A stretch of DNA of 64,000 nucleotides from Blasia pusilla. Its lineage: Eukaryota. The notes under the pieces are model-generated. The model saw nothing but the letters and a program-made list of their open reading frames with translations, searched no databases and had not been told where the DNA came from. The stretch covers positions 28,272,001 through 28,336,000 of the forward strand of contig CM114271.1 in NCBI GenBank assembly GCA_050084515.1, in the 5' to 3' direction. The position numbers were made by a program, and so were the translations under genes. Each line of letters opens with the position of its first letter. Position 1 is the first letter of the stretch. Shown piece after piece: positions 30,428 to 64,000 of this stretch.

Positions 30428-30486
30428 TATCTAACCCTATATTGCATCAGGGTGCGGGGCACCCTGATGCAATATAGGGTTAGATA
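30428..30486. repeat. Perfect inverted repeat (28-bp arms, GGG loop)
   Basis: TATCTAACCCTATATTGCATCAGGGTGC-GGG-GCACCCTGATGCAATATAGGGTTAGATA. Confidence 0.95.
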
Positions 30487-33700: not shown

Positions 33701-34246
33701 CTGCTATCTCAGGTTTCCAAGGGCCTCAGCAGGTCACCCTCGACCTACTGGGCGTGTCCTCCACTACTCATGAAGGCGCTCTATTAGATCTCACCGATCT
33801 ATCTTAAAAGACGTGACAATGATCTTGGAGTCTTGGCATTCTCTTCTAAACTTCCAAAACATGGTTGGAGTCTTAAAAAGGTAAGTAGTGGGATTTCAAT
33901 ATGGTCATCTAGATAGATTATTTGGAAAACATCAACTTTATCTCCTTTAAGCATTGTTCTTTTGCAGTTAACAATAGGAGATCAGGTATATTTGTCAAAA
34001 AGCCGCAAGGGATGGGAGCATGTTGGAGTTGGAAGAGTATCAGGCATCGTTGGTTGAAAAAAGTGCCATGGTAAATTTATCCCACTTGGTGTCATTAAGG
34101 TGGAAGTGATTGAGATAAATGATCCTGATGCAAAGTTGCCCTATCCAAATTTAGATGATATGCCGCCACAAACACACTTGAAGCATGCAACGGGGACTTC
34201 TGTTTTGTGGCCTCAGCAATCAGTCAAAAAAATCATTCCTCCATAA
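30727..34246 (+). pseudogene. Putative CACTA TnpA-like multi-exon gene remnant
   Basis: Short exon-like ORFs bounded by AG/GT sites downstream of the transposase; last segment contains DPDAKLPYP-like sequence; product assigned by position only. Confidence 0.4.
33177..33818 (-). repeat. Solo A-B unit of the methyltransferase-Gypsy family
   Basis: A 33818-33304 followed by B 33303-33177; TG...CA ends; flanks ATGG/ATGA. Confidence 0.9.
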
Positions 34247-37200: not shown

Positions 37201-39839
37201 TGGTTTTTGATGGGACACGCCCAAATAATACTCACATACACTAAGTTACTTGTTTTATTTAATAGATCCTTTAGTGATTTTTTAAAATTATTTGTTGTGT
37301 TGGTAACAAGTAAAGGTACTATATTGCCTTTGATAGGATCAATCTCTTCCATCCCTTTTACTTTGGACTCACAAGAACCTTTTTCTCTAGAGCACCTTTA
37401 CACTCCCTAAAAAGCCAAGCACCTCAATTAAAAAATGGAAATCATTTAAACTACCTGCTTTAGGATGAAATTGAATACATTTCTCTCAATGTCTATTCTA
37501 TGAACGAAATGTCTTCCTTTGTGATTGGGAGCTCATTGTGCATGTTTTATCACAAGGCTCGGTGAGTCGGAGTGCTGATTGACCTAGATTCGAATAACGT
37601 GAGTGCGTGTGATTGGGTGCAGATCAGCAATGAGAGTGTGTCCTATTGAACGCACGCTTTCGTAACACTAGAGTTTGACGTTCAAGAAGAGTAGGCACGC
37701 GACAAACAAAGGAATTCTAGTTTGCAGTCTGGATATTTGAGAGTGGTTATGTTATTCGCTCTTATGAAGAGTATAGGAAGGATGAAGAGTCGTTTGGAAC
37801 TCTCATCTCATGTGGGTTCTAGTGGCATGTGATAGGCCAAACAACTTGGATGGAGGAGTTTCCTACGCGACCAAGGATTAATTAAGTGGAGATTTCCTAC
37901 CCTTGTTGCCCTATTGGATAACACCAAGGAAATTTTTTTGGGTCGAGCACTTTAGTGTGATGAACTAATGAGAGTACATGGTCCTTCACTCTAGAACATA
38001 ACCCTTAATGTTAAGTCATGAGTCACTTACAGGTTTAGCAATTTTTTCTAAGTTAGAGAGTTGTCTATTCATATCCAAAAAGCTCTTGCTAGTTTGAGTG
38101 TGTGGTACTTCATGACATAACACAATTGATAATAAGGATGCAACTAGAGGATTCTATTCATAGTTTGATGGTGAGGGTTTAAGCAATAATAATTGACATT
38201 GAGTCATATAATGTGCTTGTTGGTGATGCCATTTGTATCTCATGGGATTCACATTGGAATATTGGGAGAATAAGGGCTCTTATCAAATGGATTGGTAGTC
38301 AAGTAGTGGTATGTTGGTCACTTTTTAGTGAATGTGATTTGCAATTTCATGCAATGGGGTGCAAAATGTTGCAACGTATTTTTTGGGGATGGGTTGGGCC
38401 AAAAACTTGCAGAAGAACAAGCCAATGATGGATGAGGGTTAAATTATGAAGAATTATATTTTGTATGTGATAATATATGAACTTTGTGCTCAAATGCCCA
38501 AATTGAGCAATTTGGGCATTTGAGCACAAAGTTGTGACCGTTTCCATGGGCTACCACAACCAACTTGTGATGGAAGGAGCAATTTTAATTTTTTTGGTAA
38601 AACTCTTAGTTGAGAGGTAGGAAAAAGTAAAATCCTTTTATCTTAGTACATATGAGAAGAGGAAAAAGTTATTTGAGGGTGAAGTCAAGTGGAAAATTTA
38701 TTTAGTAGGTGTTGACCCAAGATTTATGGGGCTTAGTGGTATATAAGCCAAATGTGAGATAATTTTAGTGAGTTGACCCTTGGTTTAAGAGTTAGTGGAG
38801 TGGAAAAAACAAAAGACATTGACTTTTGAATAAAGTTAAAATAAAGCCATATTTACCCATGTGTGAGATAATATAACTACCATTGATTTTCATCGTCCGT
38901 CCGAGCCATCCCTGCTCCGTCACTTGGCTGCTGTCGACGACGTCAATAATCGTTCGCGGATAATTTAGGGTTGTTGATTGAACGGTAGGTTTAAGAACCA
39001 TTATTTTTTGTGACTTGAGGCCGTTGAGTACTAGTAGCCATGATTGAGGGTTGAGAGTGAGTTGTTACACTGTTGACATCGGCATGACCAGTGTAGTTGT
39101 GCCATCACTGATTGTTTGCGAGTAGCTTCCAATGATGACATGTGACCTCTTGATTTAGGGGATCTGAGTTTTATTTATGCCATGCTATGCATATTTTTTG
39201 GTAGTCGCTGGACGAAAATTGGGTATCGTGTCGTGACGCGTGTACCCTAAACCCTTAACGCGCCGCCGATTGCCGTTTGTGGTCCTACCACAATATCTCC
39301 ATTGCGGAGCCGCACCATTTCTTGGGAGCAGAGTATGTATTTCTGATAGAGGAGGATATGCGGTTGAGTGCCACATCCCTTCATCAAGTGTTGCGTCGAT
39401 TGTAGCTGTTTTGTGCCGCCACTACCGCACCGTACCACACACACTAGAATAAATATGTGGTTTTTATGACTAGACTTCAAATGACTCACCAAAAGAATGA
39501 CTCAAATTATGACTAAAATGGTTTAGTCCTCAAATTTATGTTTACACGACTCACATAGTTATATGCTTATTACTAAAGTAGTTATCAACACTCTTTAGTC
39601 AAGACTAGTCGTACTTGTTTCACTTGATTAGTAATACTAAGTCATGAAGAACGACTTATGTGTTTAGTGATTTCATACTCTAATATTACCGTAAATTTAT
39701 TTGTTTGTTTGTTATATATATATATATACACCATACATTCTTGGGGTTGCCCCTCAGGATCAAATTTGAACATTCTTGGACCCTTGGTTCAGGGAAAAGG
39801 GTACTAAAAGAAGGCTCAAGAATGAAGAGGGGAAATTTG

Positions 39840-40928
39840 GGTTGGATTGTTCTACATCTCTATGCCATTTTCATCTAATCATGGACTTAAATTTTCTTCC
39901 CACCATTGGATGGTGTTGAAACTTGGCACCACCTAAGGCCATAAATCCCTCCATATCTTCAATAGTTCAAATCTGCCCAGTAAGTCCCTCATACTCAAAC
40001 AAAAAATGGAAGACCTTTTTTAGGGTTTATGATTTTTAATTCTATGTGTGATTGGTCATTTGAAGTTTTTTTTCTTTTCTATGTGTTCCTGGATGATGGC
40101 TTCCATCCTCGGAAAGTTTCATGATTTTTGGTCCCCTTATGGAGGGTTGAGGATAGAAAAAGAGGGGTCAAGAAGGAGGAAAAGGGCCTTACGTATGACT
40201 CTTTCGAGTGGTTGTGGGATGTTCTTGTTATCATGGAGTTAACGTTTATTTCCAGCATTGGATGGTGTTGAAACTTGGCAATACCCAAGGCCATAAATCC
40301 ATCCACAAATTTAACGGTTTAGATCTTCTAGGTACCTCCCCATGCTCCAAAAAAAAATGGGAGACCTTTTTAGGGTTTACGAATTGTAATTCCGTGTGTG
40401 ATTGGTCATTTGAAGTTTTTCCTTTTCCTATGTGTTCCTAGATAATAGCTTCCATCATGGGGAAAGTTTCATGATCTTTGGTCAGCTTGTGGAGGGTGGA
40501 GTATTGAGAAAGAGGGGTCAAGAAGGAGGAAGAGGGCCTTAAGTAAGACTCTTTACGAGTGGTTGTGGGATTTTCTTGTTATTATGGAGTTGAATTTTCT
40601 TCCCACCATTAGATGGTGCTGAAACTTAACACCACCTAAGGCCATAGACTCCTCCACAACTTCAATGGTTCAGATCTCTCAATTAGAACCCCGTTCTCAA
40701 ACCAAAAATGGAAGACCCGTTTTAGGGTTAACGATGTTTAATTCCATGTGTGTGTGGTCATTTGAAGTTTTTTCTTTTGCTTTGTGTTTTTGGATGATGT
40801 TTGCTACCTTGGGGAAAGTTTCACGATTTTTGGTCTCCTTGTGGAGGGTGGAAGGTAGAAAAAGTGGGGCTAAGAACTAGGAATCTAGCGAGTGGTTGTG
40901 GGATTTTCTTGTTATCATGGACTTAAAT
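39840..40928. repeat. Tandem repeat, about 350-bp unit, three copies
   Basis: CATTGGATGGTGTTGAAACTTGGCA-like anchor near 39904, 40256 and 40607. Confidence 0.85.
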
Positions 40929-41613: not shown

Positions 41614-42199
41614 AGGACCTATGTGCTTGTGACAACAGATAGGTCCTAAAATTCATAACAATCACAAATGTTTGGAGTTGTGATTGTGTGTGCTACAGCA
41701 GAAATCTAGGGATGGAGAAGATGACATTTCCAACTGACTAGCTATTTTGCACGTGAGAGAGTCATAAAGTAGTTCCAATTATAGTCTTGTGCGATAGATC
41801 TCGCCCTCTGATTGGATGGTGCTAAAGATTGGGATGGATGCAGAGGCAGGAACAAGTGAAGAAAGTAACACGTAACATGAGGAAGACTCTCATAAAGAGC
41901 AAGTGTTGATGCGCAACTTCTAGTTATCAGCCAAGGAATTCTGGAGGACAAGATAAAGCTAGCCTGATTGATGTGAATCCTCTAAAGCCGACGCTTCACG
42001 GTGCAACAGCTTTGGGCGGTTAATATAGGCTATTGAACTTGATATACGGCTCATTGATCCTAGCTTATCAAGTAGACATAGGAGTGCTCCATGTATGCAC
42101 AAGGCAGGTGCAAAACGATGTTAGCTTTAAGGCGGAACAAGCCTCCAACATGTCGGAAATTAACGGATTTCCTTACAAATTCCTAAAAAATCCGCTGTG

Positions 42200-42700
42200 C
42201 AACCCGTCGGATCCCGACTTGTTGTATTGGTTGCTTTTTTTCTTATCAGCTTAATTAGGCAGAGTTCCAACTGATAAGCAACACGTCAGAACCCGACGGG
42301 TTGCTCACCATCAAAGTTACAATTGTAGTAGCTCTACAACTTCGTCAAAAAGTTCCCGAGAAACCCTTTGGATCCCAACGGGTTGTACTGATTGCTTTTT
42401 TCCTTATCAACTTAGGCAAAGTTCTAGCTGATAAGCAACCCGTCAGCAAAGTAACAATTCAAGTAGTTGTACAACTTCCTAAAAATTCCCGTGCAACTGT
42501 CGGATCCCAACGAGTTGCATTGGTTGCTTTTTTCCTTATTTGCTTAGGCAGAGTTCTAGCTGATAAGCAACCAATCAAATCTAACGGGTTGCTCATCAGC
42601 AAAGTCACAAGTCTATGAGCAACCCGCCGGGTGTCGACGGGTTGCAAATCATGTCTCTACACAATTCTTCCAACCCGTTGGAATCCGACGGGTTGCATGT
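42200..42700. repeat. Three imperfect repeats of about 130-160 bp with CAACCCG/CGGGTTG motifs in both orientations
   Basis: TTGCTTTTTTCCTTAT...AGTTCTAGCTGATAAGCAAC-like block near 42230, 42391 and 42523. Confidence 0.75.
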
Positions 42701-45255: not shown

Positions 45256-46336
45256 CTTTCAAGATAAAATATATCAGTTCCAATCTTGCTTCAAAAAATA
45301 CCCATGGTTAAGATTCAAAATCCATCCACCAAAAAGAAGGTGGAGACCTTTCACAAAACATGTATCGTAGACATGGGGGATAAAGTCTTATAGATTAGGA
45401 AAATAGGTTGCAACCATGTAACCCAACCTTGTCATTGGTTATATGATGACCAACATGGTATTCTTGAAACTTCCTGCAATGACGAAGCTAAGTTTAAGTG
45501 GGACTCAAACATAGAGCCAATAGATTTAGATAGAAGCTTAAATTGTATAAGTTATACGGACAAGGTCGTAAAGTCATACCTATACAAATTGGGATTTTTA
45601 CCAAGTACCAAATGATTGGGATTCATGTCCACTATAATGGAAGTTTGTAGATGAGTGATTGGAGGAGGATAATCCGATATACACACATGAAACTTTATCT
45701 AAGGGAGATAATCATAATCCTTTTCCTTCCAAATTTAGGAATAAAGGGTAGGATCCTATTCTATCTTTCATATGATATTTGGGAAACAAGATACAAGACG
45801 TAACTACCAAGAGACTAATAAGTATGGGTCAAACTTGAAATATGCCCAATGGAGTAACTTAGGGCGATCAAAAGTTAGAACTTGGCTAAGGTTAGCCATT
45901 TTCATGAGAATCATCAAGCTTCCAACTAGGAGATCCCATTGGCAAACGTAATATAAAGATGTTTCAAAATTTCATACATATCTAGTTTTATGAGTAAAAA
46001 TTGATGAGAGAAAATCCTCGAATGCCTTTATATAGTCAACAATATGCTCAAGCTTTCCGTATTGGGAAAATGGGAACATAACCTCGTGCCATTCTAGTTA
46101 AGTTTGTTGATCAAAATCAACATAATACTGCCATGGCTAACAAGGCCGTTCTCAAAGGACGGAGGATGTGGTTGGATCCTGATCTTATAGCTCTACAAGT
46201 CGAAGCTAGGAGAAAGGAGCTTGCAAAGGTCAAAGAGGCTCAAGAAGCAGGTTTTATTGCTTATCTATGCGATGGTCGAGCAATTTTTATCCAGAGAAAA
46301 AGAGAGTTATCAACCTAGCAATCCAAGAAGCTGAGA

Positions 46337-48917
46337 GTGTTGATGTGGAATATACGAGGCCTTTCAACAACAAAGTATGTGAGTGCTCTACCAATTTGGG
46401 AGATGGCGGACATTATCAATATTGTGGAGACTTGGGAACATGAGAGCAATACTATTGCAGAGATGCAAGGGTTTACTTTAGTGGGATTGACATGGAACCA
46501 AAGAAGGCAACGAGCAGGAAGGGGTTATGGCGGTATTGCTACTTTCATCAGGTCTCAATTTCTACCTCTCATACATCTAGAAGATCAAGATATCGGGGGC
46601 CAATATCATTGGCTACGTCTTGGTTTGGTTGGGGGATCTTATTGTTATTTGGCAGTTCATTATTTTGCACCACTGTCCATGCCTATCTACTCAAAACGCA
46701 CTTACAATGGAAGTCAACCGTTCCATCGACTTATTGGGGATGTTCTCAAATATCAAAACAAAGGTGAAGTCTTTCTAGTTGAGGATTTCAATGCTCGCAC
46801 ACATATTGCTTAATTTACCCAATTTAGTGATTCCTTGACTTCTCCTATTCTCGAAGAACATGAGGATGGTTTGTGGTCTACAATCTCTTTAGATCTTTCT
46901 ACAAATCCTTTGATAGAGCATTTTTTAACTTTCGGAGGCACTTGTAATTTGAAAGTTCTTAACAGAACCTCTCATTTTCCCAACTCTCACTCCAATACGT
47001 GTTTCTCCTCTACCGGCGCTAGCACCATCGATTATCATTTGTCCTCGCCCGCTTATAGCTCTCTTATCTCTAAATTTGATATTCTAGAACCTCTGCCTGA
47101 ATCAGATCACGCACCTCTTTTGTTTACTCTCTCACTGTCAAAGGAAATTCCTCTCTTGACATGTCAATCTATTTTAGCTTCTCCCAAGTTTCGCTGGTAA
47201 AAAATATCTTTATACGCTACATTTATAAGAACTCTTGACTCGCATTATATGGAGCCCACATCCACACACTGCAAGTTTGCAACTAATTGAATTGCTCAAA
47301 AATACTGCATCTAAGTTCTTTTCGCGGCACAGGGATAAAAGTGGTAGGAGAATGCCTTGTAATGGGTGGTTTGACTCTGAATGCAAGCAAGGAAGGGCAA
47401 GATCAGTAGATAAATAGTTGGATATCCAAAGTCGGCTTATTATGACGAGCCTTTACAAATACTTGGTGAAATATAAGAAACGAGCTTTCTTATGGCGGAA
47501 GCAAGAGTCCTTGACAAGGGAGATACATGACGATCCCAAATTTTTTTGGAGATGGTTACTAGTACGATCTTCAAAACCTACTCTTGATCCCAAGTCTTTG
47601 ATATCTTTTGCCGAAAAGCTTTATTTCTTCCCCGATGCTATATCTATGCCACATTGTGAAGGAATACCTGGCTTATTCTCTGAAGCAGAGGTGATGACTC
47701 CACTAAGAAGATTAGTAAATGGTAAATGTGAGGATTTGGATGGTCTTTCTATTGAACTTTTCAAGTGGGGAGGAGATTCTATTCGACCGATCCTCACCAA
47801 AGTATTGGATGATGTTGCTATCTATGGTTTTCCTTCAACCTGGTCGCTACGAGAGATTGTTCCTATTCATAAATCAGGAAGGAAGGACTTGGTGACAAAC
47901 TATCGCACTATCATGGTGGGTAGTGTTTTTGCCAAGCTCTTTGGGAAATTGGTGGAGTCAAAGTTGAGCGCATGGACAGAGTCTTTCCAAAAGATAGCAC
48001 GGCTCCAAGCTCATTTTTTCCCAACATACAACACCATCGACCATATCTTGGCCTTGCCTGTTTTATGGGAGAAATCTAAGGGTAATGGAAAAGCTTTGTT
48101 TTGCGGTTTCATCGATTTTAAGAAAGCTTTTGATATTGTACCTCGTAAGCTCTTATGGGAAAGGCTGCAAGCCATTGGAGTACCACCAAATCTCCTAGCA
48201 ACCGTGGCCACGTTATACCATTCTGTTCGGGCCAAGATCAAAAGTTCACAAACTCAAGAGATCTTGAATACCATCGGAGTCATTCAAGGTTGCCCTCTCT
48301 CCCCTACTCTATTTGGAGTTTTCATAGATGATATCGAAAAGTGGTTGGAGGAATGTGATAGTGAAGGTGTCAAGCTTGGAGACTTTGTCATCAAAGCTCT
48401 ATTGTATGCAGATGATAGCATATTACTAGCACGTGATGGCATTAGTTTACAAAAACACCTCAACACTTTGGCAAGATTTTGTACCCAGAATCAGATGGAG
48501 GTTAATATGGAGAAGTCTAAAGTCATTATGATGGGTACTAGATCCACGTTCTTGTTCTTTTACAAAGGTCTACAATTAGAATAAGTGAAGAGTTACAAAT
48601 ATCTAGACATCGATTTGTCTCATGACTATAGTTGGGCACTTTGCGTGTTAAAGATAGGAGAAGCTGGTAACAAAGCTCTATATTCATTTTTAAACTGGTG
48701 TAGAAGAGCTCATCTTGTGTCTTGGGATCTTAAGAAATTCTTATTTAGGAGCTTAGTGTTGCCGGTGGTCTTATATGAGACCAAAGTTTGGGGCCTTAAT
48801 TGTAAGAAAGGTTCGGAGCGCGTGGAGAGGGTGCAAAAGATATTTCTACAAGAAGAATTGGGTGTAAGAAACCAAACTCTGTATGCTATTGTTCTTGTGG
48901 AAATAGGTTGTCTTCCT
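46337..48917 (+). pseudogene. LINE ORF2 (AP endonuclease and RT), disrupted
   Basis: WNIRGL, VETW, DFNAR, TIDY, ESDHAPL; IVPIHKSG, NYRTI, IDFKKAFD, GVIQGCPLSPTLF, LLYADD. Confidence 0.9.
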
Positions 48918-49196
48918 TGTCGTGCGAATCCACATCGTCATACAATATACATCGCTGACATACCATACTCACATACATACATAACATAGACGAGAGCATC
49001 CAAAAACACAAGTGTACCACAACTCGCCCCCCTAACTGGCGGTTAGGTCCCTCTAACTCCCAGGTAGCCCTATACATCTACTACATGCTATACACCTTCT
49101 TGGATGCCCGAATCAGAAGGTCGGGTGCTAGGTTGCCCCATCGTTAGTCGCACATCTGTAATCCATATCATGCAAAGATCAAGTCATCTACCTCTC

Positions 49197-49345
49197 CTAA
49201 GTACATCGAGGACAAACCCACCTTCCAGTAAGAACAACATCCATACGTGGAGTCAAACACATCATGTGCCAACCCCTAGAACACCGATCACACACAAACA
49301 TACGGGCTGCGTTACCAGCAGACCCACACAACATGCACCTCAAGC
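49197..49345 (-). pseudogene. PHD finger (E4)
   Basis: CMLCGSAGNAARMFVCDRCSRGWHMMCLTPRMDVVLTGRWVCPRC, a complete C4HC3 pattern. Confidence 0.9.
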
Positions 49346-52043
49346 TAGCACGGATCATGGCTAAGCTTGGGTCAACAATACCATCCACATTTGGAAGATG
49401 ACATGGCGCACAATTACGCATATGGTCCTTCCAAACAACTCCATCACGACCCTCCAACATGAGAACTCCAGAAGCTAACACCTCGCGCACTCGTAAAATA
49501 GTGCGGCTTGCCGTCACATCCAACGTTGTCGGTGCAATCTGCTGCAAATAGACATAGTCCCCCAAATGGAACCTACGAATCAATGGTCGATAAGCTCCAC
49601 CCCGAATGGTTGCATACCGCAACGTATCCCTGTGTTGAGCAATGGCAAGATTCTCAAAGGTCGTTGGCATAACTCAAAGAAAGAGCCGCTAAGAACACAC
49701 TCTCATCCACATCTCTCGGCTCATCAAGGTTCACCACCTCACTAGACTCGAAAAATTTCTTTGGCAAGTCCGGATCTCGTCAGTATAATGTAAAATAAGG
49801 TGAGAAGGAAGCCAAGGATGCTTGGCGACTAAACCTATACCCCATGGCTAACCATGGCAATCGAATATCCAGTCTCCAAGATGCCCTTCAGAGGCCATAC
49901 TTGCGCAATGCCCTCTTTCTTTTGCCCGAACCACACTCTCAGCCAAACCATCCGCCTTTGGATGATCTCGAGACGTGGTCCGATGATCAATCAACGCCTT
50001 GTCATACAAGACGTGAAACTCACCTTGAAACTCTGTACCCTGGTCGGTCAGCACTTCATCTCGTGCACCAAAATGACTAAGCACTCTATCAAGAAACGCA
50101 TACGCCGTTCCCTCACTTGCCTTGTCCGGTAATGCCACCAACTCAATCCACTTGGAGAAGTGCTCCACCATCACCAACACATATCGATGATGTCGTACAG
50201 TCAACGGTAACGGTCCCGCAAAGTCCACACTCCAACGGTAACCCAACCCCATAATAGGCAAGGGGTGTAATTGTGGTGTAGGGGCATTGAATGATGCCCT
50301 CACCCGGTCACAAACCATACAACGTGACACCAACTGGTGCACCTGAGTATGCATGCCACGCCACCAATATTGGCCAAGGAGTAAGCTATACGTACGCTTT
50401 ATCCCAAAATTTCCTAACTCCTCATAGGCATGTCGCACAATACGCTCTCTCTAAGCCAAATGTGGCACTACTCGTACTCTACCATCCTCCCACACGCGGA
50501 GAATATGTGTTCCCTCCAATCGATACCTCTTAGCACGTTGAAGAACACGGTCTCGCTCCATGGGTACATAGAACATGGGTTCCTACTCAACCCATCAGCA
50601 TCAAGGTTGGCAACTCCAGGTCTATGTACCACCTGGAAGTCATACTCCTGTAAGATAAGAGCCCACCGTGCAAGCTTCCCTGTAAGCTTGTCAGACTCCA
50701 TCAACCACTTGAGCGGCCGGTGATCAGAACAAGGGTAAATCGTGGTGCCAAACAAGTAACATCTAAAGTGTCCCCTGGCCCACACTTTGCTAAGCACTCT
50801 CCCTCATATGAACTATAGCGCGACTCCGCTGCATTATTCGAACGACTTGCATAGGCCACCACAAACTCCATGTGCTCATCATCATGTTGTGTCAACACCG
50901 CTCCAAGTCCTAACCTACTCCAATCAGTGTGTAACTGAAATGGGCGCCCTCTGATAGGTCTCCTCAAGATAGGCACCGCCACCAACTGGGCCTTAAGCTC
51001 CACAAAAGCTCTCTCCTGATCATCTCCCCAATGCCACTCTTGATCTGATTTCAGGAGTTGGTTCAAAGGCTTTGCCATAGCACTAAATCCCTTCACATAC
51101 CTCCGATAGTTGTTTGCCAATCCCATGAATGCTCGAACTCTACTCACATCTACAAGACGCGGAATAAGTGCAATAGCCTCCACCTTTGCTTGCTGAACTC
51201 CTAAACCACCTGGATAGATCACATGACCCAAGTACTTAACATCCTCATGGAAGAACTTACACTTTCCTGGATGCAAACGTAATCCATGAGCTTTCAATCG
51301 CTCAAACACCATCTGCAAATATATCTGATGCTCCTCCACCGTGTTACTGAACACCAAGATATCAATGTAACACCGAACAAAATCCAACCCTGCTAGGATC
51401 CTGTCCATCACTCTCAGAAACTCGACAGGTGCATTCTTCAACCAAAGGGTAAGAATTTCCACTGGTACAAACAATCCTTGCCATGAGAGTTGACACCCCA
51501 AAATGCTGTCTTGGCCTCGTCACTCTCCCAAATCGGCAATTGATGGTATCCTGCCCGAAGATCCAAAGTACTGAAAATCTTTGCCTGTCCCACCACATCA
51601 AAGATCTCCTCAAGTGTAGGCATGGCATACCTATCGTCCTTGGTTTGCCGATTGATAAGACGGTAATCTCCACACATACGCCTATCCGTGTAGTTGCCAT
51701 GCATATCCTTTTTAGCAGGCATGACAGTGGCTGATGCATACTCTCCATGCGACAACTCCACTAATCCAGCCTCCAAAAGGTCCAACGTCCTACTCTGAAT
51801 CAGGTCCCTCTCCATATCACTATATCAGTAGGGACGACGGAAGATTGGCGTATCACTAGCCAAATCAATCCGTATACCGGGTCCAACCAGAGAACCCAAC
51901 TCCTTCATGCTAAAGGCAAAACAACTCCTATAAGCACGTAGGAACTCTGTCAAGCGTCGTTTCTCACCTTCCGTAAGCTTGGGCCCAAGTAATGGCTCCC
52001 AAGTCTCCTCCACTGGCACACTAGCGGGAGAGGACGATGCCAT
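49346..52043 (-). pseudogene. RT, RNase H and integrase (E4, disrupted)
   Basis: RMCGDYR, LDLRAGYHQ, LHTDWS, WSVDFAGPLP, LTDQGTEF, DGLAES. Confidence 0.9.
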
Positions 52044-52312
52044 TGGCTGCTATGCAACCCCCTCACAAGATGGTACACCCTTAGCTACACCATCATCTGA
52101 GCAAATAACTCCTCCACGAGCATGAGCAACCAACTCCACATGCCCAGCCATTACATCCCATTTACTCCAAGGATGCAAAATACTACTCTCCTCGCCCCCA
52201 GCCGATGCCTCTACCGTCCCGGTAACCATCGAGCTCATTACAAGGGGTGGAAGACCCACAGACATAGTCCGAAGTCGACGCTGCTCGGCCATACCAAGAC
52301 TCAAAATCCAAG

Positions 52313-53250
52313 TCAAAAATTCAGGTCCATGGCCTGACCCAACACATGACGTCGTGAAGCCTCGTAAATAGAAGCAACTTTGTCACACCAAAGAGCAAAT
52401 CCCATCGCACGCTCTCTCTCATCAGCGTTAGGCTCCACCAAGTGTCGCACATGAGAATCCCATACAAGCCCCAGACCACCTTCTCTGTAAGCATGTGACG
52501 AGGGAAAACTCACAAATGTGGGTAGTGCCATCCTAGGCTGGCCCACACAGTTCACCACTGCCATGGGTGACCGATCAATAACCCTCACCACCTGAGAAAG
52601 TCGCCCAATATCCAAGATACTATCCACGGTAGGGCAAGGATCCCGCTGCACTGCATCATATGCTCGACGTAGAGCCTCCCTGGGCAACAAGTTTGTCCAC
52701 CACAAGCATGGAAGATGTGCACGCGAGCCAACTCGCGCTGCATCCAACAACACCGTTGGTCCAATCCAAGACCGCACCTCATGAACACTCGCCATCATCC
52801 GGGTCCGAGTGTCATCCAACAATGGAACATTCTCCAGAATGTAAGCTAGAGCACGTGCCTGATGAACCTGAAGATGTCGTAACACCCGTAACATCTCCCA
52901 AAACAATCGAGACCTAGGGTCATGTAATCCCTCATCACGACCAGCACGTGTATGACCCTGACATGGCCATCCAGCAATCACCAAATCCACAGGACCAACC
53001 CTCTCAAGATCCTGCGCCCCCAACAATGCAATGTGTGATGGTAAAGCACGCTGGTATCCACGAATAGCTGATGGCGGCAACAACTCAAGATATCTCTGCA
53101 TCAATTGACCAATATGTTGGGATGAGACTCTCTGGGCCGTCTCATCTCGCTCCACATACACGTATCTCCTTGCAGACAGAATACCGGCCGCAACATGCTG
53201 CTAGCCTAAACCAGTGCTAATCCCACTAAAGAGATCTAACACACAAATGC
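52313..53250 (-). pseudogene. C5 cytosine DNA methyltransferase domain (E4)
   Basis: VLDLFSGISTG, YVERD, DLVIAGWPCQG, YILENVP, RAHLPCLWWTN, ERERAMGF, RRHVLGQAMD. Confidence 0.9.
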
Positions 53251-54708
53251 CCTCCGCGGATATGCCATACAATGGGTGTAGTATCCAAAGGGATAACCTA
53301 ATCTGGACTGAAGTAGGAGTCCGCCGTGGGGCCTCCTCTTCCTCGTGAGGTATAACAACCTCACACCAAGCCTCTGCACTAGGCGTCGCCTCGCCGTAGT
53401 GCACCGCTGAACTCCAAAGTGGCACATCCAACGATGATGATGCCACTTCTGCAAGAATAGGGACCTCCTCTACCTCCTCATGCCCAGGAGAATCCATAGC
53501 AGAAACATTACCCTCCAAAAAGTCTCCTGGCCAAGTGACTACTCCACTAAAACCAGCCACAGATGCTAACACTTTGTTGGGGAAGACCCTCTGGTCGAGC
53601 CCCGAGGAAATAAATCTCATAGGAACTTGGCTCATACGTCCATCCCGGACTACCAACCAGGTCTATAAGACGCTATCTCGACCCAAGTAATCCATTGAAA
53701 ACCCATCGGGTACAATCGCTCCTCCAACTAGTACATCATACGACTCGGCTTATGTGACTACAGAGATACTCCTAATCGGGAGCTATCGTCGCATGATCTG
53801 GTGTCAATCATCACAGAAAACTTCTCCTGTGTCATGAATTGAGATCTATCATTGGCTCCTCCAAGTGATGTTTGAATCAGGAATGGGCAAGGCTCAAGCT
53901 CTGACCTCCGAATACCCAAACCAATACATGCCGCCTTTCCCAACATCAAGGTTGGGCACCGAGTCTAACAAGACTCTATCGGTCTATACACTGTCTGTAG
54001 GACTCACCAATCGGAATATCCCACTCCGGTTGTCCAACATACATACACCAGGTGTAAGTCTCTCACGATCAATGGTGGCCGGGCCGGTAATGCATCCATC
54101 TTCGCCGCCGCTCGCTAAGTAGCATGGTAGTCAATGCTACACCTGACATAGAGGGTCGCTCCACTGCAACACCCTCATCCACCTCAACACGTGTAGCAAT
54201 AACACCCCCACGTTCATACAACGTGGCTGCAAGGTGAAATACAGGAGCTAAGTCAACTCCTAAAGCCATCAGCTCCGTGGCGAAAACAATGGGGATCCTA
54301 ACACTTTGAAGTTGCCATCCGCACATCTTGATCGATGTTGCATCCGTATGCGCTACACGCGATGTAGATGCCTCAGTCTCCACTGTCGGCTCAATAGGCT
54401 GTGTAGGACCCATGGATGGAGTCCTAAGCATCTCAGACAACAAGAATGACTGGGGAAGCCTAGCCTGCCTCCCAGCCTCACCCCTCTGTGGGTCTAACTC
54501 CACAGTAGCACCACGTGGCTCGACGCTCGAGTGGATCCTCTCAGAATCGCGGTGATGCCTCAACCTGTGTTGCACTCGCCATATAAGAGAGATCATCCCC
54601 TCCATAAGAGGTGGAAGCCCCTGCTCCCGAACCTAATCTATGCTAGATACCACCATAGTAGCCAACTGCTCCAATCTGCTCAATCTCGGCGACCATAGTC
54701 GCCCTCTG

Positions 54709-56085
54709 TCAGAGTGGTAGGGGTAGCCACCGTAGGCTCTCCAACCACTCGGGTCCACCTCTACCACCTCTATCACCTCGGCCTCTCGGAGCTACTCCAC
54801 CACGGCCGCGGCCTGATCTCAACTTTGGATGAAGATCAAAGCAATGCTCTCGAGGATGACCTGGTCTCCCGCAAAGATCACACTGAGTTGGGACCGACTG
54901 AGGCCCATCCTCCAAAGTCCGTCTCCCATCCTTTTGGGGATAAAACTTCCTAACATGATCACCTCCACATATCGAACATGATTGTCCTTGCTGCGGGGCA
55001 GCAAATGAAGGCAATGGTCTCTACGCAAATGTCCCTCTAGGACCTGACTGAGGTCGTGTGTACTCCCCACGACTCCCACTACTACTACCACCACCACTAC
55101 TATAAGACCGTGAGGTGGATTGCTGAACACGAGAGGTAGTAGTTGTATCCCTACTGAATGCGGATGTCACCACTCTCTCCTTCACCATGTTAAGCTCAAT
55201 CTTCTCAGATAGAGCAAACACATGGGTCAATGTGGGTGAATCACCACTCATAAGAGTAGCATCACGTACCCTACGGCGTAAATCGTTGTCCAAGATCCCA
55301 TACCAAAACTGGACTGCCTGATCCTCAATCACACCCTGGGTAACTGAAATCATGCGTCGCATACGAATGTATGCCTCACGAAAACTCTCACCAGTCTTTC
55401 GCTCAAATTCTTGAAGATTCTTCAACTTCTCCGTCTTCACTCCGTGATAATTCTTCTTCAACCTCTTGAAGAACTCTGCAACCGGGCTGAACGATGGTGG
55501 GGCACTAGTACCTCCACTAGTACCCCCACTAGTACCCCCACTCCGGCTCGTACTCGTACCACTCAACGTCGGGCTGGCTGGCATAGTAGGAGCACTACTA
55601 CCAATACCACCATGGGTAATAGACACATAGCCTGAAGACCAATATTGTCTCCATGCCTCAATCTCAACAACATGGTCCTTCCTAAACTCATGGTAATCAT
55701 CCATGGGTGGTCCTTCCAAGTGCTCAAACAACCCCTTCCAAGCCAAGAAGGGTGTAAACAACGTGGCGTTCCGCAACACCTGCATATCACACCACGTATC
55801 AAACTCCTGCATGAAGTCCTCCAACTCAATGGTGCCCACTGCACCCGAGTATCGTCGTGGGCCCTTCATGGCCCCATATCCACTGTCCATGTCCCAAATC
55901 AATGGAGCTGCAACACTCGATAACAACGTAGAAGACTCGGTGTTTGGAACACCCTCGTCCTCCTCTTCATCAACCGTCGGAAGTGGAAAAGGTAGCCGAC
56001 ACCTAAATCCACTCCGTGTGAAATCACCACTGTCCGCACCACGGTCCCCAACTAGACCACCCGACAGCTCCGTGATGACCAACAC
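54709..56085 (-). pseudogene. Gag with zinc knuckles (E4)
   Basis: PRRYSGAVGTIELEDF, FERKTGESFREAY, CDLCGRPGHPREHC. Confidence 0.8.
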
Positions 56086-58739
56086 CGATGCCGCACCACC
56101 ACCAAATTACCACCACCAAATAGCCAAGTGACGTCGATGTCGCTTTACTATTCTAGCTCTACGAGCTATGGGTGTAGGCAACCTAACCTGTCATCACCAC
56201 AAGAAGCCTCCCACTGTCTACTGGTCATCACTCCAGCCTCACTATCGGTAGCACACAGGAGTAACACTACTCTGGAAATCAACGTCAACCCTAACAATGG
56301 GCGCGCAAGCAAGAAGTACCAATGGAGGGGATCCAAACACAGGAAGTCCAACGACAACCCTCTAATCGCAAATGGAAATCAAGGTAACACAATCCACCAA
56401 ACTTGGTGCCCCCTGACTCCACAAAATCCACCACACAATTCTAACGCAATAGCTACTCCGCCGCGGGTCGATGACGTGCTAGTCGAACTCGCAGCACCTG
56501 AAAATATCACCTGCATGGAGAGGCTACACCGTACTATGTGCTAGAGGTACATCAACCAAAAACTGAGATGCATAAAGCGCCTAACACCTCTCCGAACAGC
56601 ACCAAATGAGCTACAACAGTGTGTACATTGGCATAGTTAAGAACTCAGCAGTTAAGCTTCCTCCAGGCAGAATAGCCCAAAGATGGGAGACCAGTTATGC
56701 AACACTCAAATCCCAAATCCTGCAAAAATTGCCTCACGCCCAAGCAAGCTTTCTTGCTTGCTTGCTCCTTGCTCCTTACTCCGCCTCTCATGCCCACTCG
56801 CCCCGAGCTACCACGAGTTGCCTCGAAGCCTCACATGCTCAAGACATGCCCCGTTCGCCACGCTTCGCCATGCTTTGCTATGGAGAGAGGCCCAACTAGG
56901 GCGCCCCCAATGGGATAGGCGTCTCCAACAATGAACGAGTCACCAACCAACCAGACCCTCCGATCCGCTATCCACCATAGCCAGACCTTGAGCTAGTCGG
57001 CAAAATTTCGATCAGCAATTACTTCACAAATCCGTGACTGAAATCAAATCTGTTTCAACCAGAATTAAATTGACCACCATAGCTATCTCTCCACAAAAAA
57101 TCAGCTACAATTGAGCTTTGTACTCCGAGCTAAAAATCAGACAAACTTGCTGTCCATACACCTCCAGAATCGCAAATCCGACAGCGCTTCTGCCAAGTTT
57201 CATGCACGCAGAAATCCGCAACGCTCCACACACTCGAGCAAATAGCTTCACATGAGATCACAATATAAGTAGCAATAAGAACCTCTCACTCGATCTGGAT
57301 GAACTTCAATAGAGCTTCCGCACTCCAAGCTCTCCACATCAGAAAACCGTCGAACACAAACCAAAATCTTCAATCCTTGATAACTTCCAACTCCCTTGAC
57401 GAAATCCGGCGATCTAAAGTGCATTGGAAAGCTCTCAGGAAGGCGCTTCTTTCCCAACCAACCACGCACCAGATTCACACCTCCAACATAGGCCACAAGC
57501 CACAAACATCCACGGTTGAGTACACAATCAGCCCTAACCAGATCCTACTGATCTACAATCGAAGCTACCATCGATCTACTCCAGTTCTTTGAGTGAAATC
57601 CGTGAAAGACCTACTGTCATAAAACACGTATACAATCACATACAATTGAGCCAAACCCACTCCACGATGGGAGAATCTAGGTCGAAGCTTGCGGGAAACA
57701 CCATAGCCAAGAGCTCTACTCACTACCAAGGCTAACTCCCAACGCAAGAGGCTCAACTCAAAGAACTGACTGTTCTTTGAGTGCACTCCACCTTATATCC
57801 TCCAACCTAAGAGCGGGCCCTACTGGGAAAGTCACCCCCAACTGAGTAACCCCCAACCCAATGTATGAAACCGCATCTCTACCAAGCCACTACGGTCCTA
57901 CATAAGGAATGGCCTCTACTAGCACACTATACTCTACGACATAATCCGTATGGTCATGACATCCTCTAGAGGCTGAAGCTCTTTACTTGACCATCACTTA
58001 CATCACAAGGATGAGATCTCTTGTTGTTTCTTGCCTCCCTCATCAAGCTTTGCGAGCCACACGTTCCATAGGGTGGATGGCGGATGTGGTGACTTGGTCT
58101 TCAAAGTGGAATGTGGCGGAACGCGATTGGGAGTTGAAACCGATGGCACTCCGCGAGCATCTACAGTTGCAATTTCTCAATATTATTTGGAGCATCCCGG
58201 GCACCAAAATGGAGTTTTATCAACTTCATGTTAATCATATGCTTGTATATTTTGAACAAGGATACCTACTTGCGGGGATCTCCACGTTCTTACATCATAT
58301 TATCGCACGACATAGAATAGGGTCTCATAGGCTAGGAATTGAGAAAGGTTGATGGTTTCATATTGAAAGAAGTGAATGAATTTGTAGGTTATGTGATGGA
58401 GAAAATATTGAGGATGAAGAACATGTGTTTGTTACATGTCCAAGGTATGAAGAGATTAGACTAGCTCATAAAATAGATGTGGAGAATTTCTATTCTTTAC
58501 TATAGCTAGTGCCTTATGATTTAGGTTATTATATTAGGGACGTCATTATTCATCGCTCAAGTGCTCTATGCAGTAGCTAGGAGAAGGTCTTTAGGATCTG
58601 TTTTCGGGTCAGTGAATGAATGACTTGTAATGTGTTTTTCAGCCTTTTGACCCTTTGGGTTCCACGGGCTTGATCTATTTACCATTTACCATTTTACAAT
58701 GAAAAAGTTTGCAAGGATAAAATAAATAAAGACTATGAT

Positions 58740-59410
58740 AAGATTGCGAAGTCAAGATCCTTCTTAGAAAGTTTGAATGCTAGGTTCAAGGATTTGGTAG
58801 AGATGTCCTATCTCTTGACATTGGATGACATGAAAATTCATTAGGGGGCAAGGGATGCATGGTGCTATATAGTTTGATATAACCTAGCTTCAAGAAGAAG
58901 GCAGATATGAGAACAGGAGCCTCATAGCAACAAAACTATGTGGAACAATAACACCAAGGACAGTACCAAGAACAACAATATTCACAAACTGAGCATCTCT
59001 TGGTAATGACTCATCATATGGGAGCAATGGTCAAGAAAGACTTGACAACAAATTGATATATTGACTCAGTTGCATCAAATCATATGACCTCACAAGCTAA
59101 ATGGTTCAATAGCATGCAGCCGGTGAAAGATCTTGCAATTGTGCTCACAGGAGATGACACTTAGCATCATATCACGCATATCGGTAAAGTTCCAATAGCA
59201 TTAGATGATTTTTGTGCTCTTGGAAATATTCTCTATCTTCCTACCATTGCAAGAAACTTGATCTTTGTAGGACAAAGAGTAGAACATGGTTATCAAGTGA
59301 ATTTTAACATATATGGTTGTTTCATTGAAATAATGGATAATCAGCTATGATAGCCAAATGAATTAGATCTGTCAGAATATTCAAATGAGATGTTTCTATG
59401 GTAGAGATTC
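58740..59410 (+). pseudogene. Highly decayed Ty1/Copia gag-pol fragment
   Basis: Remnants HITHIGKV, NILYLPTIARNLIFVGQ, GYQVNF, typical of the Copia protease region. Confidence 0.55.
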
Positions 59411-62400
59411 TGTCGTGCGCATACACATCGCTACACAACATACATCGTTGTCACCAAACACACACACAAACACGCACGATCCCATGCTAACGCATGGCAT
59501 CCAAACAACGAGATAAGAAGTACCAAAATATCTCTAATAAATCAAGATCCAATCCCTCTCACAACACCATAGTTCTCACATGTGTACACTCTCATATATC
59601 TCTCTCAATGTCAAACCAAACCCACTCTCCTAATGAGAGATTTGGGTTACACTTACAAGGCAAGGGACCATAGCTTCGTCGCCTTGTGCCAAGAGGTTCA
59701 ACAAAGAGAGAATGAGCTCTCAAGCTTTCTCTCCTTGAGGTATTCCCCTCCCCTCTCCTAAGCTCTCTCCATGGTACCACCTATGCTCCCAAGTCACCTC
59801 CTTGGCTTTTGACTTGATATATGAGGGGAAGGGCCACTCACCATAAATATAAAGTCGACCATATACTCAAAATGATACTTAACTAAAATAGTAAGTTCCT
59901 CAATATGGCTTCAAATGAGCCGAAAGGATGGGAAAACCTGTTCTCTCAGGTTTTCCGGGGCCTCAACAGGTCATCCTCGACCTGTTGAGCCTCTCCTCCA
60001 CTACTCGCAAAGGCGCTCTACTAGATCTCACCGATCTATCCAACAAATATAACAGTTGTCGTGCGCATACACATCGCTACATAACATACATTGTTATCAC
60101 CGAACACACAGATAAACACGCACGATCCCATGCTAACGCATAATATCCAAACAACGAGATAAGAAGTACCAAAATATCTCGTATCGCGCCTAGTTGGTGG
60201 TTAGATCCCTCTAACTCCAGATAGCCATCTATCCCTACTTACCATGACATACATCTCTCGGACGCTAAGAGCAAGAAGGTTGGATGCTCATGTGGACCTT
60301 TCGTTAGTTGTCTTCTTATCATCCATGTTAGAGAGACTAGTCAGAATGTAGAACTACCTACGTTATCAACATCTGAGACACATCCATCGTCCCTAAGGAA
60401 CCCTAATGAGAGGTGGCGTCAAACGTGCCACATGCCATCCTCTCGAACATCCATCACATACTAGCATAGTGGCTGTATCGCGGGCAGAACCACATAACAT
60501 ACATCACAAGCCTGCACGAACTAGTGCTAAGCTTGAGTCAACTATACTGTCAATGTTCAGAAGGTGACACGACGCACATTTACGCACATGGTCCTTCCAA
60601 ACCAGACCATCGCATCCCTCCAATAAGAGAATATCTGATGGCAAAACCTTACGCACTCTTAAGATGGTGCGCCTACAGTCACATCCAACGTCGTGGGTGC
60701 CGTCTACTGCAAGTAGACATAGTCTCCTTGATGAAACCTCCGGATAGTAGGTCGATAACCACCTTCCCGTATAGTCGCATACCTCAATGTATCCCGATGC
60801 TGCACAATCGCCAAGTTCTCAAACGCCACGAGCATCACTCTCCGAGAAAATATTCAGCCCTTTGAGAACATGCTCGCATCCATACATCAGGGTCATCATG
60901 GTTCAACACCTCACCAACATCTCGACGAATGGCCGGAGGTAAATCTTGCTCATGACCATAAAGTAGCAAGTACGGTGAGAAAGATGCTAAGGATGCATGC
61001 CTACTGAATTTGTATCCCATCGTCAACCATGGCAACTGAAGGTCCCAATCTCCTTGGTAACCTCTTTGCAAGGCATACTTGCGTAATCCTTTCTTCACCA
61101 TGTGCAAAACCCTTTCCGCTAGTCCATCCGCCTCAGGATGATCTCGCGTAGTGGTGCGATGGTCGATCAGTGCCTGATCACATAAGGCATGAAACTCCCC
61201 GCAAAACTTTGTACCCTGGTCTGTTAACACCTCAGCCGGTGGGCCGTAATGACTCAACACTCAATCCAGGAAGGCATATGCTACTCCCTCACTCACTTTG
61301 TCACGCAATGCAACCAATATCCACTTCGAGAAGTGCTTGTCCATCATTTTTGCGACCCTCATAACCAAACAACACCAAAAAGGCGCCAAGCGGAACATCA
61401 GAACTCAAGTGGACTCACGTTGCAATGTTCGTGCTTTGGAGAGGCGTTTGGAAAGGTCTCTTGGAAAAGTCCAAGAGACAAAACGCGGAACAAAGTTGTG
61501 TGTTTCATGCGTTAGTGGTCTCGACCAGGAAACCTAGACCAAATGCAATCCAAGACTTGAGATGAGTTGAGTCTTGGAAGGTTGGTTGCCAAAGAGGTGA
61601 GAACCAGTTTTGGAACACGACTAGCGTTTGGGGAATTTGACTGTGTTTTGGACTATAACATTTAGCCCCAAGATGCATTATAGAGAAGTAAATACGCGTT
61701 GGAAAGCTTATCTTAAGATGCTTCCAACGCACCAAAGATCTTAGCAAACGCATAATTACAGACTGAGATATTGGTCGAAAACAACTGTGAGAGCAATCGG
61801 ATTGAGGTCCAATTGGAGAGGCTCGAGTGTCTTTCCCTAAATTTAGGGAACCTTGGAGATCCCCAGAAGTACTAGTAAAGGAGGAGTCTCTCCAAGATAT
61901 CTTGGAACACGAATCCCCACTCTGAGCACCAAACGGTGTCTTAGAGGCACGGGATGGAACGGGAGTTTGGCGTTGGAACTCGAAACCCAAACTTGATCCA
62001 AGGGAGTAGACTTTGTACGCCACACTTGGATTCCAACCCGAGATTCACTTCGTGTGAGTCTCGGTTAGGGCCTCATGGATGTCCATTGGACAGTTGGAAC
62101 CGCCACGCGCAAAACGTTGTTTGAGGGTCTTGAACCGATTAGAAAGTCTGTCCCAAGTCTTTTGAGACTTGCCCGTGTTGTAAACCGCGAAACAAGGAAG
62201 GTTGAGCTTGATGAGAGACCAAGACAAGAACTCAGAAAGTAAGTCCGCTGCTTGATCCAAGAACCGACTGAACAAAGTGTGTGTTTGGATGCAGATCAAC
62301 GTTGAGAGCGTGACGAACTGAACGTACACTTCTGCAAAAACAAGATTAACGGTCAATGAGAGTAGGCGCACGATAATCACCAACACTTAACGACTATGGC

Positions 62401-64000
62401 ACTCCATCAAAGGCAAAGGTACTACAAAATTAAAACTCCATCTATAACCTAAACCCATTATCGAAAGTGGATGCAACTGTGGAGTTGGAGCATTAAACGA
62501 TGCTCGGACTCAATCACACACCATGCATCTGGCAACAAACTGATGAACATCAGTCTGCATGTCTCGCCACCAATACTGAATCTAGAGCAAGATGTACGTC
62601 CACTTCACTCCAAAATGACCCAACTCCTCTTGGGCATGACGCATCAAACGTGCTCTCTGCGAAGGATGAGGCACTACACGCACTCTACCATCCTCCCACA
62701 CCCGCAATACATATGTCCCCTCCCATCGAAACCGTCCGGCTCATTGTAGGATCTGATACCGCTCTCTAGCACCCGCTGTGCTCACAACGCTGCGAGTACC
62801 CAAGTACTCCAAGACTACTTTGTCGTCGTGAACATCTCGGCCACTTATCGTCTCCTCACCGGCCTCTAGATCTAAGGATTCTCCATCAGACCTTGCCGTC
62901 GAAGTCTCCGCAATCTAGCTCTCCACAGCCAACAAGCCCAAATAGGCTGACGGATGCCATCATAGTACCAACTCCTCATCACTGTCACCATGCCAACGAG
63001 CTCCAATTGCATCTCGTTGACTATGGCATGGGTTATGGCTCAAACCGTTTGCATCTTGGTTCAGCATCCCTGGTCTATGCACCACTAGGAAGTCATACTC
63101 TTGCAACAAAAGAGCACCTTGCAAGCTTCCCTGTAAGCTTGTCAGACTCCATCAACCACTTAAGTGGCTGATGATCAATAATGATGGTAAGGGGATTTCC
63201 GCATAGATAACATCTGATATGTGCGACAGCCCACACTGCAACCAAGCACTCACCCTAATACGAGCTATACTTCGCCTCTATAGCGTTGTTCAAGCGACTC
63301 GTGAGCCACCACAAACTCTCTACCATCATCGGCATACTAGGTAAGCACGGCTTCAAGCCCCAACATGCTCCAATCGGTATGAAAGTGGAAAGGACGTCCC
63401 CTGAACGGTCTCTTCAATATGGGTGCGGACGTCAATCTGTCCTTGAGCATCTGAAATGCTCATCCCCCTAGTGCCACTCCTGATCCACCTTGGTCAACAA
63501 GGTCAGTGGCTTTGCAATCGAGCTGAAACCCTTGATGTACTGTCGATAGAAGTTCACCAATCTCATGAATGCACAAACTCGACTCACATCTGTAGGGCAT
63601 GGAATGTGTGAAATAGCCTCTACCTTCGTTTGTTGCACACCAAGGCCACATGGGTATATCGTATGACCAAAGTACTCAATCTGGTCGTAAAAGAACTTGC
63701 ACTTGCCTAGATGTAGCTTCAACCCATGTAATTGCAATTGTCAAAATATCTCCTCTAGGTGTCGCTCATGCTCCTCAACCATGGCGCTAAAGACTACAAT
63801 GTCATCAATATAACACCTAGAAAAATCTAGACCTGCCAAGATCCTACCAATGACCCTATGAAACTCAGCCGGGGCGTTATTTAACCCAAATGGTAAGAAC
63901 CTCCACTGGTACAAACAATCCTTCTCGTGAGGATCGATGCCCCAAAATGCCGTCTTCTGCCTCTCCTCCAATCTGATAGGCAGCTGATGGAATCCGACTC
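59411..64000 (-). mobile_element. Element E5: 3' part of a methyltransferase-Gypsy family copy (RT-RH-IN-PHD-B-A-B), running off the right edge
   Basis: B2 59411-59537, A2 59538-60054, B1 60057-60183, PHD about 60365-60510, integrase, RNase H and RT CYIDD; high similarity to E1 and E3. Confidence 0.88.
61348..62375. repeat. About 1-kb insertion in the E5 integrase, probably a solo LTR of another family
   Basis: Host integrase resumes on both sides; flanks ATCAT/ATCAC; decayed ends TTTTGCGACC...GCGCACGATA. Confidence 0.6.

Follow-up and report, generated by a model that had tools for sequence, protein, structure and literature searches.

E4 is a Gypsy-type retroelement copy located on the minus strand at positions 48918-57961 of a 64,000-nucleotide stretch of Blasia pusilla DNA (GenBank assembly GCA_050084515.1, contig CM114271.1, positions 28,272,001 to 28,336,000; this whole stretch is called the window, and its numbering is used unless a contig is named). 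The genome was searched over 390 Mb in 26 contigs, and the usual inserted form of the E4 family was A1-body-B1-NN-A2-B2, where A (368 bp) and B (106 bp) are repeats and NN is a 2-nucleotide spacer between B1 and A2; E4 is a defective minority copy without NN-A2-B2. Inserted copies of the family look like a two-LTR (long terminal repeat) circle reopened at an internal site. A mechanism of permuted LTRs and internal cleavage is well supported by genomic footprints and is probable, if unproven; the combination of this mechanism for the family with an origin of E4 as a deletion derivative is, on balance, favoured.

E4 interrupts a LINE (long interspersed nuclear element) whose left part, encoding endonuclease and reverse transcriptase (PF03372 and PF00078), lies at 46319..48917 (+) and whose right part lies at 57966..58352 (+). 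The LINE frame reads ...EIGCLP up to a codon end at the left of E4 and continues in phase with LEAEAL... at the right, and a paralogous LINE copy (L038) in which both flanks are contiguous represents the empty site. The target-site duplication (TSD) TCCT was read directly both at the left (48914..48917, +) and at the right (57962..57965, +), where the empty-site paralogue also supports it; 4 bp is the norm of the family. The termini, TGTCGTG (48918-48924) and CATGACA (57955-57961), matched in inverted orientation at 6 of 7 positions. A preceding reading made from the letters of the window (the sequence-only reading) had described TG...CA ends, a TCCT duplication and an in-frame interruption of the LINE, and all of these were confirmed.

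Repeat A1 (57594..57961, -) starts with TGTCATG; in most relatives, but not in E4, a second copy (A2) is placed between B1 and B2. At the other end, repeat B (48918..49023, -) ends with CACGACA and is followed by the TSD rather than by NN-A2-B2. It is abutted by the polypurine-tract-like motif GGGGGGCGA (49024..49032, -), which is identical before B1 in a second family of the window (family 2) and was kept at several A|B joints; the 3' end thus agreed with the motif plus B-like segment of about 105 bp reported from sequence. Self-BLAST (word size 7) gave no direct repeat above 26 bits within E4, and the best local alignment between its first 700 and last 2000 bases scored 28, against a shuffled mean of 30.6. 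The 5' sequence is therefore not repeated at the 3' end, as had been claimed, and the diverged LTR pair named beforehand as a refuting structure was not found, self-alignment being at noise level. The description of E4 as “complete” held for both termini and for the coding domains, but not for the rest: reading frames are broken, no protease motif was found and about 260 bp found in most relatives are absent near position 50565. E4 has both termini but is not intact.

The split-repeat layout was seen in most relatives. Thirty of 41 loci matching the E4 3' end were followed outwards: 28 ran from B into A, one stopped at B and one was E4 itself. At 30 of 40 loci matching the 5' end, unrelated sequence and not B preceded A in all cases (30/30). 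Among 48 3' ends of E4 relatives, 43 were B-A-B, two were truncated and three, including E4, were B-only; the pattern of the B1|A2 junction followed by A-B gave 463 genome matches. Full copies (n = 28) carried a TSD around A1...B2, with 4 of 4 bases matching in 23, 3 of 4 in three and none in two. The arrangement was not that of two full terminal LTRs with a tract before the 3' LTR, since the family ends A...B-A-B with the tract before B1. The split-repeat model of the sequence-only reading was upheld by these counts, and the B-A-B ends that it had proposed to look for in other copies were the rule. They also refuted its other proposal, a natively LTR-less Gypsy family, as the normal form: E4 and a minority of B-only copies are all that speaks for it, 28 of the 29 other 3' ends continue into A, and the B-only copies do not have a single common B haplotype, so that this explanation has practically no probability left.

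B-only, solo and triplicated forms accompany the usual one. A pattern search for purine tract-B without a following TG gave 47 genome matches, of which 30 were examined: 13 were clean B-only copies including E4, three ran into other element sequence, 13 were junction variants and one was a B2. After correction for the filter, B-only copies number about 36-45, roughly 5-9% of 3' ends (a rough figure, as motif lengths differ). Both ends were located in eight of them, with TSD matches of 4/4 in five, 3/4 in two and none in one; in this check the 5' end lay outside the retrieved segment for 7 of 12 copies. Solo A-B units made up 22 of 30 examined among 67 matches (12 with a 4/4 TSD; about 87 estimated in all), and B-A-B-A-B triplications occurred once in the E4 family (L195) and in 2 of 30 cases in family 2.

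Family 2 has a different repeat sequence (A of about 520 bp and B of about 124 bp) and the same split-repeat layout; it has the purine tract, internal palindrome and self-primer register of the E4 family, and its pol is 65-75% alike to that of E4. In the window it forms nested copies at 7823-about 17975 (+), 18125-19147 (-), 19148-25801 (+) and 59411-64000 (-), and a solo A-B unit at 33177-33818 (-) with a four-base duplication matching at 3 of 4 positions.

Two unusual loci of the E4 family were also seen. At G000:C3:11384471-11396970 (L042/L098), A1 and A2 belong to different subfamilies within a 3/4 TSD, which may reflect two templates or conversion. At G000:C1:7357389-7371424 (L018/L019/L077), flank, A1 and 322 bp of leader are present as three tandem copies before one element, which sits inside a family-2 repeat.

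The signals expected to set the ends of the complementary DNA (cDNA) were found next to A1 and B1. The 11-12 nucleotides directly after A1 form the complement of A positions 194-205, a match that random 11-mers reached in A in 9 of 20000 trials. The predicted primer-binding site (57583..57593, -) abuts A1, and the same 11 nucleotides were kept at three A|B joints elsewhere; its partner (57757..57767, -) would be the first 11 nucleotides of the RNA, acting as self-primer, and the pairing was present in the RNA fold (z=-2.1). A TATA-like box (57792..57797, -), putatively functional, stands 30 nucleotides upstream of this presumed start, with a spacing of 31 nucleotides in two family-2 5' ends; the self-primer register was likewise conserved with different letters in the two families (two 5' ends in family 2). 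The primer site of the E4 family thus appears to follow the self-priming pattern of Tf1, whose self-primer is 11 nucleotides long, with a start site deduced from the pairing. No transfer RNA genes were present in the window, and the primer site was not compared with transfer RNA ends. The primer-site sequence recurs a short way upstream of the presumed start, where it forms a 10-bp hairpin with the self-primer (57757-57784, -); in the A2 of the RNA this hairpin could mask the 3' primer copy.

In both families it is B1, and not A2, that directly follows the purine tract. If the primer site after A1 and the tract before B1 set the cDNA ends, the repeat defined by reverse transcription is B-NN-A. 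Within this repeat, the conserved inverted ends meet at the B1|A2 junction as CA and TG separated by a 2-nucleotide spacer, which is usually GC or one of its deamination products; a cut there with a 2-nucleotide stagger would yield processed integrase ends.

The A|B joint looks newly made. Leaving out joints with net deletion, 768 were counted (683 modal and 85 with net insertion), and primer remnants of at least 3 nucleotides were present at 7 of the 768. The full 11-nucleotide primer site was kept at C1:60900859, C1:14749424 and C8:14358095 and a partial one at C1:27722289; at least 7 nucleotides of the purine tract were kept at C2:41547075, C2:43020069, C8:1438110 and C8:14358095. The joint at C8:14358095 holds primer site and tract in the order predicted for joined cDNA ends. 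Of six remnant-bearing joints whose surroundings were examined, three lie in a full B1-A2-B2 context and three in a solo-like or partial one. In three further loci (L101, L102 and L103) A2 was followed by the primer site, 83-160 nucleotides of leader and then B or a partial A-B, and in another (L124) the tract was kept ahead of B2; family 2 showed both kinds of remnant (L170; L191/L194, probably one event). Alleles of the subfamilies were common to B1 and B2 within copies at 84 of 85, 78 of 81, 83 of 86 and 84 of 86 comparisons, and to A1 and A2 in about 24 of 27 (judged by eye), as expected if both repeats are remade in each cycle. One-base A|B variants (69 of the 85 insertions were net +1) were rejected as tract remnants because the joint contains CAG and small indels cluster at CWG, and C8:24740036 was removed as a tandem duplication. 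The multi-base primer remnants are unlike this one-base type, which is probably base-calling error, and were kept as evidence.

These features suggest the following cycle. Transcription would start inside A1, and the first 11 nucleotides of the RNA would pair with the site after A1 and so, in the manner of Tf1, serve as primer of the minus strand; plus-strand synthesis would begin at the purine tract before B1, giving a linear cDNA bounded by the repeat B-NN-A. The A end of this cDNA would then be joined to the start of B, either in a two-LTR circle or by mending of a break right after insertion, and the DDE integrase would open the palindromic CA-NN-TG within the left repeat with a 2-nucleotide stagger, producing TG...CA ends and a 4-bp TSD. 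With end joining and internal reopening, the split repeats would be an ordinary LTR pair in circularly permuted form. RNA from E4, being without A2, would miss the 3' repeat required for strand transfer, and E4 is probably a dead-end copy.

One internal site is strongly preferred for opening. There were 0 cases of the mirror product A-B-NN-A-body-B: the four matches of junction-A-primer site were all 3' ends, and the single match at an A|B junction was a triplication. This weighs against the cycle, as a plain two-LTR circle has two equal sites. Several further observations count against it. The A2 of the same copy ranked 1-2 among those nearest to A1 in 16 of 28 copies but at 9 or beyond in 10. 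A U3 (unique 3' region) variant was present in 68 B-linked A copies vs. 2 A1 copies (only 2 A1 copies begin CG), and two copies (L111 and L131) pair a clean A1 with a variant A2, which LTR copying from one template does not predict; the standard reverse-transcription scheme yields identical LTRs (PMC6894440). Body deletion could also account for some of the joints that kept primer sequence, as these are in solo-like units. No RNA across A|B was present among the matches listed; this speaks for the cycle but is only suggestive.

The variants restricted to A2 may reflect a second template for the left repeat or base-calling error, of which error is favoured, although unproven. Small indels were 2.5-fold enriched at CWG (35% near CWG vs. 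14% background) and numbered 0.5 per copy in B1 and 0.0 in B2; a single A1 that is tandemly repeated three times has the U3 variant in one of its copies; and A1 and A2 of L131 have common private variants on both sides of the variant. All of these favour error. Nanopore calls err at methylated sites. The B1|A2-junction and A2-specific variants were also considered as inherited lesions needing a helper template; no internal template was found, and this reading is less favoured than error. A tree built from 24 3' regions had a star-like shape and gave no information on the A2 variants, and eight unselected A1/A2 pairs had gap counts of 13 and 13; a comparison of variant load between A1 and A2 was set aside as confounded, most A1 having been chosen by likeness to E4.

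A wider reading can be offered tentatively. In a green-lineage Gypsy clade the integrase site would have moved into a palindrome of the LTR, making end joining obligate and leaving one site to be reopened, much as in IS3 circles, with the second site protected and E4-type copies arising as by-product insertions with one LTR. Protection of the second site might come, as part of this same tentative reading, from end proximity, strand history or methylation of CAGCTG by the Dnmt3-like enzyme of the element.

Deletion after insertion between the two 106-bp copies of B is the likeliest cause of the E4 form. The B1 x B2 recombination proposed by the sequence-only reading is thus compatible with all data and is the first choice, without being separable from direct integration of a one-repeat form, because the B1/B2 haplotype is common within copies and B-only copies are not measurably older (divergence 0.036 vs. 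0.032 in controls, p=0.19; 12 vs. 18 copies, 2 of 20 controls having been dropped for short overlap, in a test of low power on a young family). The missing age excess tells against deletion, as an origin after insertion might have shown one; repeat-mediated rearrangement does occur in the family, as the solo A-B units and B-A-B-A-B triplications indicate. Direct insertion of E4 as it stands, from a one-repeat circle or from a linear cDNA cut at both internal sites, would give A-body-B with a clean TSD and a product identical in sequence to E4, and is possible but clearly less probable. The frequency of B-only copies (about 36-45 vs. about 87 solos) despite the shortness of B, the single match to a reciprocal triplication and the lack of age excess agree with it, as does the excess of one-LTR over two-LTR circles in HIV (human immunodeficiency virus; PMC5314604). 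However, good one-repeat substrates should be common, and B-only forms are less than one tenth; the right-hand internal site is otherwise never the one opened; and a pair of 106-bp repeats at a distance of 370 bp is an ordinary substrate for deletion. The age test had low power.

Replication of the DIRS type, with RNA carrying A2-B2, an inherited A|B joint, B1-NN-A2 serving only as template for the termini and the primer-like sites being secondary, is improbable. The layout is the same as in DIRS, 683 of 768 A|B joints are precise and A2-specific variants seem not to be transmitted to A1. Exact remnants of the 11-nucleotide primer site and of the purine tract at the A|B joint, the self-primer register conserved in two families, the homogenised B1 and B2, the drop of RNA depth within A together with the lack of A|B RNA among the matches listed, and the presence of a DDE integrase and 4-bp TSDs with no tyrosine recombinase argue against it. 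Still less probable is a collapse of the 3' repeats in the assembly, the plant locus being truly B-A-B. Assembly is error-prone in repeats (about 92 small indels per family copy with respect to E4, CWG-enriched), and no contig or read bridging flank, B and purine tract was seen in read mapping; nevertheless, the same assembly resolves B-A-B in 43 of 48 3' ends, the missing piece is only about 476 bp and the window is without N. Deletion between the B copies in E4, within a family replicating through permuted LTRs, is retained as the best account of both.

Transcripts of the family were present in two RNA runs with the same species label, of which about 6% and 12% of reads were read. RNA covered the whole of E4 on the inferred sense strand with 3' bias in both runs. 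Only 56 of 4265 and 63 of 4213 reads were at least 99% alike to E4, indicating that the RNA derives from other copies. The B|NN|A junction was spanned by 88 and 125 reads respectively, with GC or AC spacers. In one run (X22), 28 molecules (depth beside 110) start at position 57800 in the first mate and are absent from the other (X23); such a pile-up would place an RNA 3' end at about A position 162, which lies upstream of the presumed start. Skips of 6216 bases (49587-55804) and 97 bases (48973-49071) occurred in RNA from both runs, from deleted relatives or by splicing.

The coding domains of E4, all on the minus strand, are ordered 5' to 3' as gag-like region, CCHC knuckle, methyltransferase, reverse transcriptase, RNase H, integrase and PHD finger. 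The gag-like piece (55021..56106) was labelled by position and family layout and is without a Pfam match, and the CCHC zinc knuckle (54841..54882) was found by motif scan. The C5 cytosine methyltransferase (52313..53236; PF00145, E=8.7e-10) contains motifs I, IV and VI and is Dnmt3-like, judging from a homologue 78% identical to it (P0121) whose top match was DNMT3A (E=6e-12). Reverse transcriptase and RNase H (50468..51824; PF00078, PF17917, PF17919) are in three frame pieces, followed by the integrase (49848..50450; PF17921, PF00665), with an H2C2 finger and a core with D, D and E, so that the Ty3/Gypsy order of reverse transcriptase, RNase H and DDE integrase is present. The pol ends with a PHD finger (49197..49337; PF00628, E=1.3e-9), and no chromodomain was matched in E4 by Pfam. 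An aspartic protease was detected in E4 neither by Pfam nor as a D-S/T-G motif; an LDSG motif is visible in a Marchantia homologue (P0002). No tyrosine recombinase was matched in the 10 E4 open reading frames scanned.

The nearest named homologues were from Calypogeia, Marchantia, Riccia and Sphagnum, where they are annotated as hypothetical genes, and then from Klebsormidium and Closterium. A quick tree of reverse transcriptases (FastTree, 71 of 130 rows) placed E4 with liverwort proteins inside a Gypsy clade bearing PHD or methyltransferase domains (support 1.0), together with two Klebsormidium proteins (P0034 and P0036), neither of which was shown to be KnitGypsy-Dnmt3; no Klebsormidium methyltransferase was present among the matches listed. 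Chlorophyte (Chromochloris, Monoraphidium) and other contigs also held methyltransferase-related pol with integrase and PHD (P0295, P0298, P0281-P0289), and capture of the methyltransferase may therefore predate streptophytes.

The split-repeat layout in a Gypsy element is already known from one legend line on KnitGypsy-Dnmt3 of Klebsormidium nitens, which combines Gypsy domains with DIRS-type repeats, A-coding-B-A-B (de Mendoza et al. 2018, PMC5890265). The sequence-only reading had overlooked this precedent, as well as the Dnmt3-like domain and the self-priming site of E4. That element resembles the E4 family in its Gypsy pol with a Dnmt3-like domain and in its repeats; the E4 family differs in its land-plant host, its hundreds of copies and its RNA, E4 itself being A-coding-B. 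Neither a primer site nor a TSD, an internal junction or a mechanism is given in the passages on KnitGypsy-Dnmt3 in PMC5890265. In the openly searchable literature (without subscription papers, theses, Repbase or bioRxiv supplements) this was the only report of the layout in a Gypsy element, and no liverwort members or mechanism were found there. The description of Gypsy-7a_cRei of Chlamydomonas mentions LTR “subparts” and a PHD finger.

Other known systems have single features in common with the family. Tf1/Sushi and plant Tcn1 Ty3/Gypsy elements are described as self-primed (PMC6317226); their primer site immediately follows the 5' repeat and is complementary to the start of the RNA, as deduced here, but they have ordinary LTR pairs and chromodomains instead of PHD, methyltransferase and permuted repeats. 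Integrases of foamy virus and HIV-1 cleave the palindromic LTR-LTR junctions of two-LTR circles (PMC1180852, PMC1905944, PMC5314604), which parallels the internal cutting of CA...TG by a DDE integrase to give integrable ends proposed here. In these viruses the palindrome is created by end joining and the route is a side path, whereas in the E4 family it is encoded inside the repeat, with a 2-nucleotide spacer, at a distance of 106 bp from the joined ends, and its cleavage would be the principal route. SymbioDIRS-Dnmt3 is a DIRS element with split direct repeats (PMC5890265). Such DIRS elements are alike in A-body-B-A-B, but use a tyrosine recombinase in place of the DDE integrase, TG...CA ends and 4-bp TSDs found here. 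PAT and Ngaro are also DIRS elements with split direct repeats. Circle junctions of IS3/IS911, bacterial DNA transposons without reverse transcription, abut inverted ends across a short spacer, and the DDE enzyme that opens them is a relative of retroviral integrase.

Taken by itself, E4 is no more than a deletion-type derivative, and the family is the more interesting result. Integration through circle junctions was once proposed for retroviruses and later set aside as a side path; if the mechanism proposed here is true, the E4 family offers an abundant, transcribed natural system in which to study how a retroelement integrase cleaves internally, and the mechanism would account for the DIRS-like repeats of KnitGypsy-Dnmt3, noted there without one. 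Structure-based LTR finders require two similar terminal LTRs (PMC6317226) and would be expected to miss or mis-bound permuted-LTR elements; this blind spot may explain the scant literature on a family with many hundreds of copies. Pieces of Dnmt3-bearing elements can also inflate counts of host DNA methyltransferase genes. The CWG-enriched small indels of this assembly call for caution with frameshift counts and LTR ages.

Elsewhere in the window, the 3' end of a copy of family 2 breaks a putative Copia-like fragment (59000-59410, identified by eye). Also present were two palindromes, 54-59 bp long and near-perfect (30428-30486 and 38480-38533), and two tandem arrays with units of about 350 and 150 bp (39867-40928 and 42174-42610).

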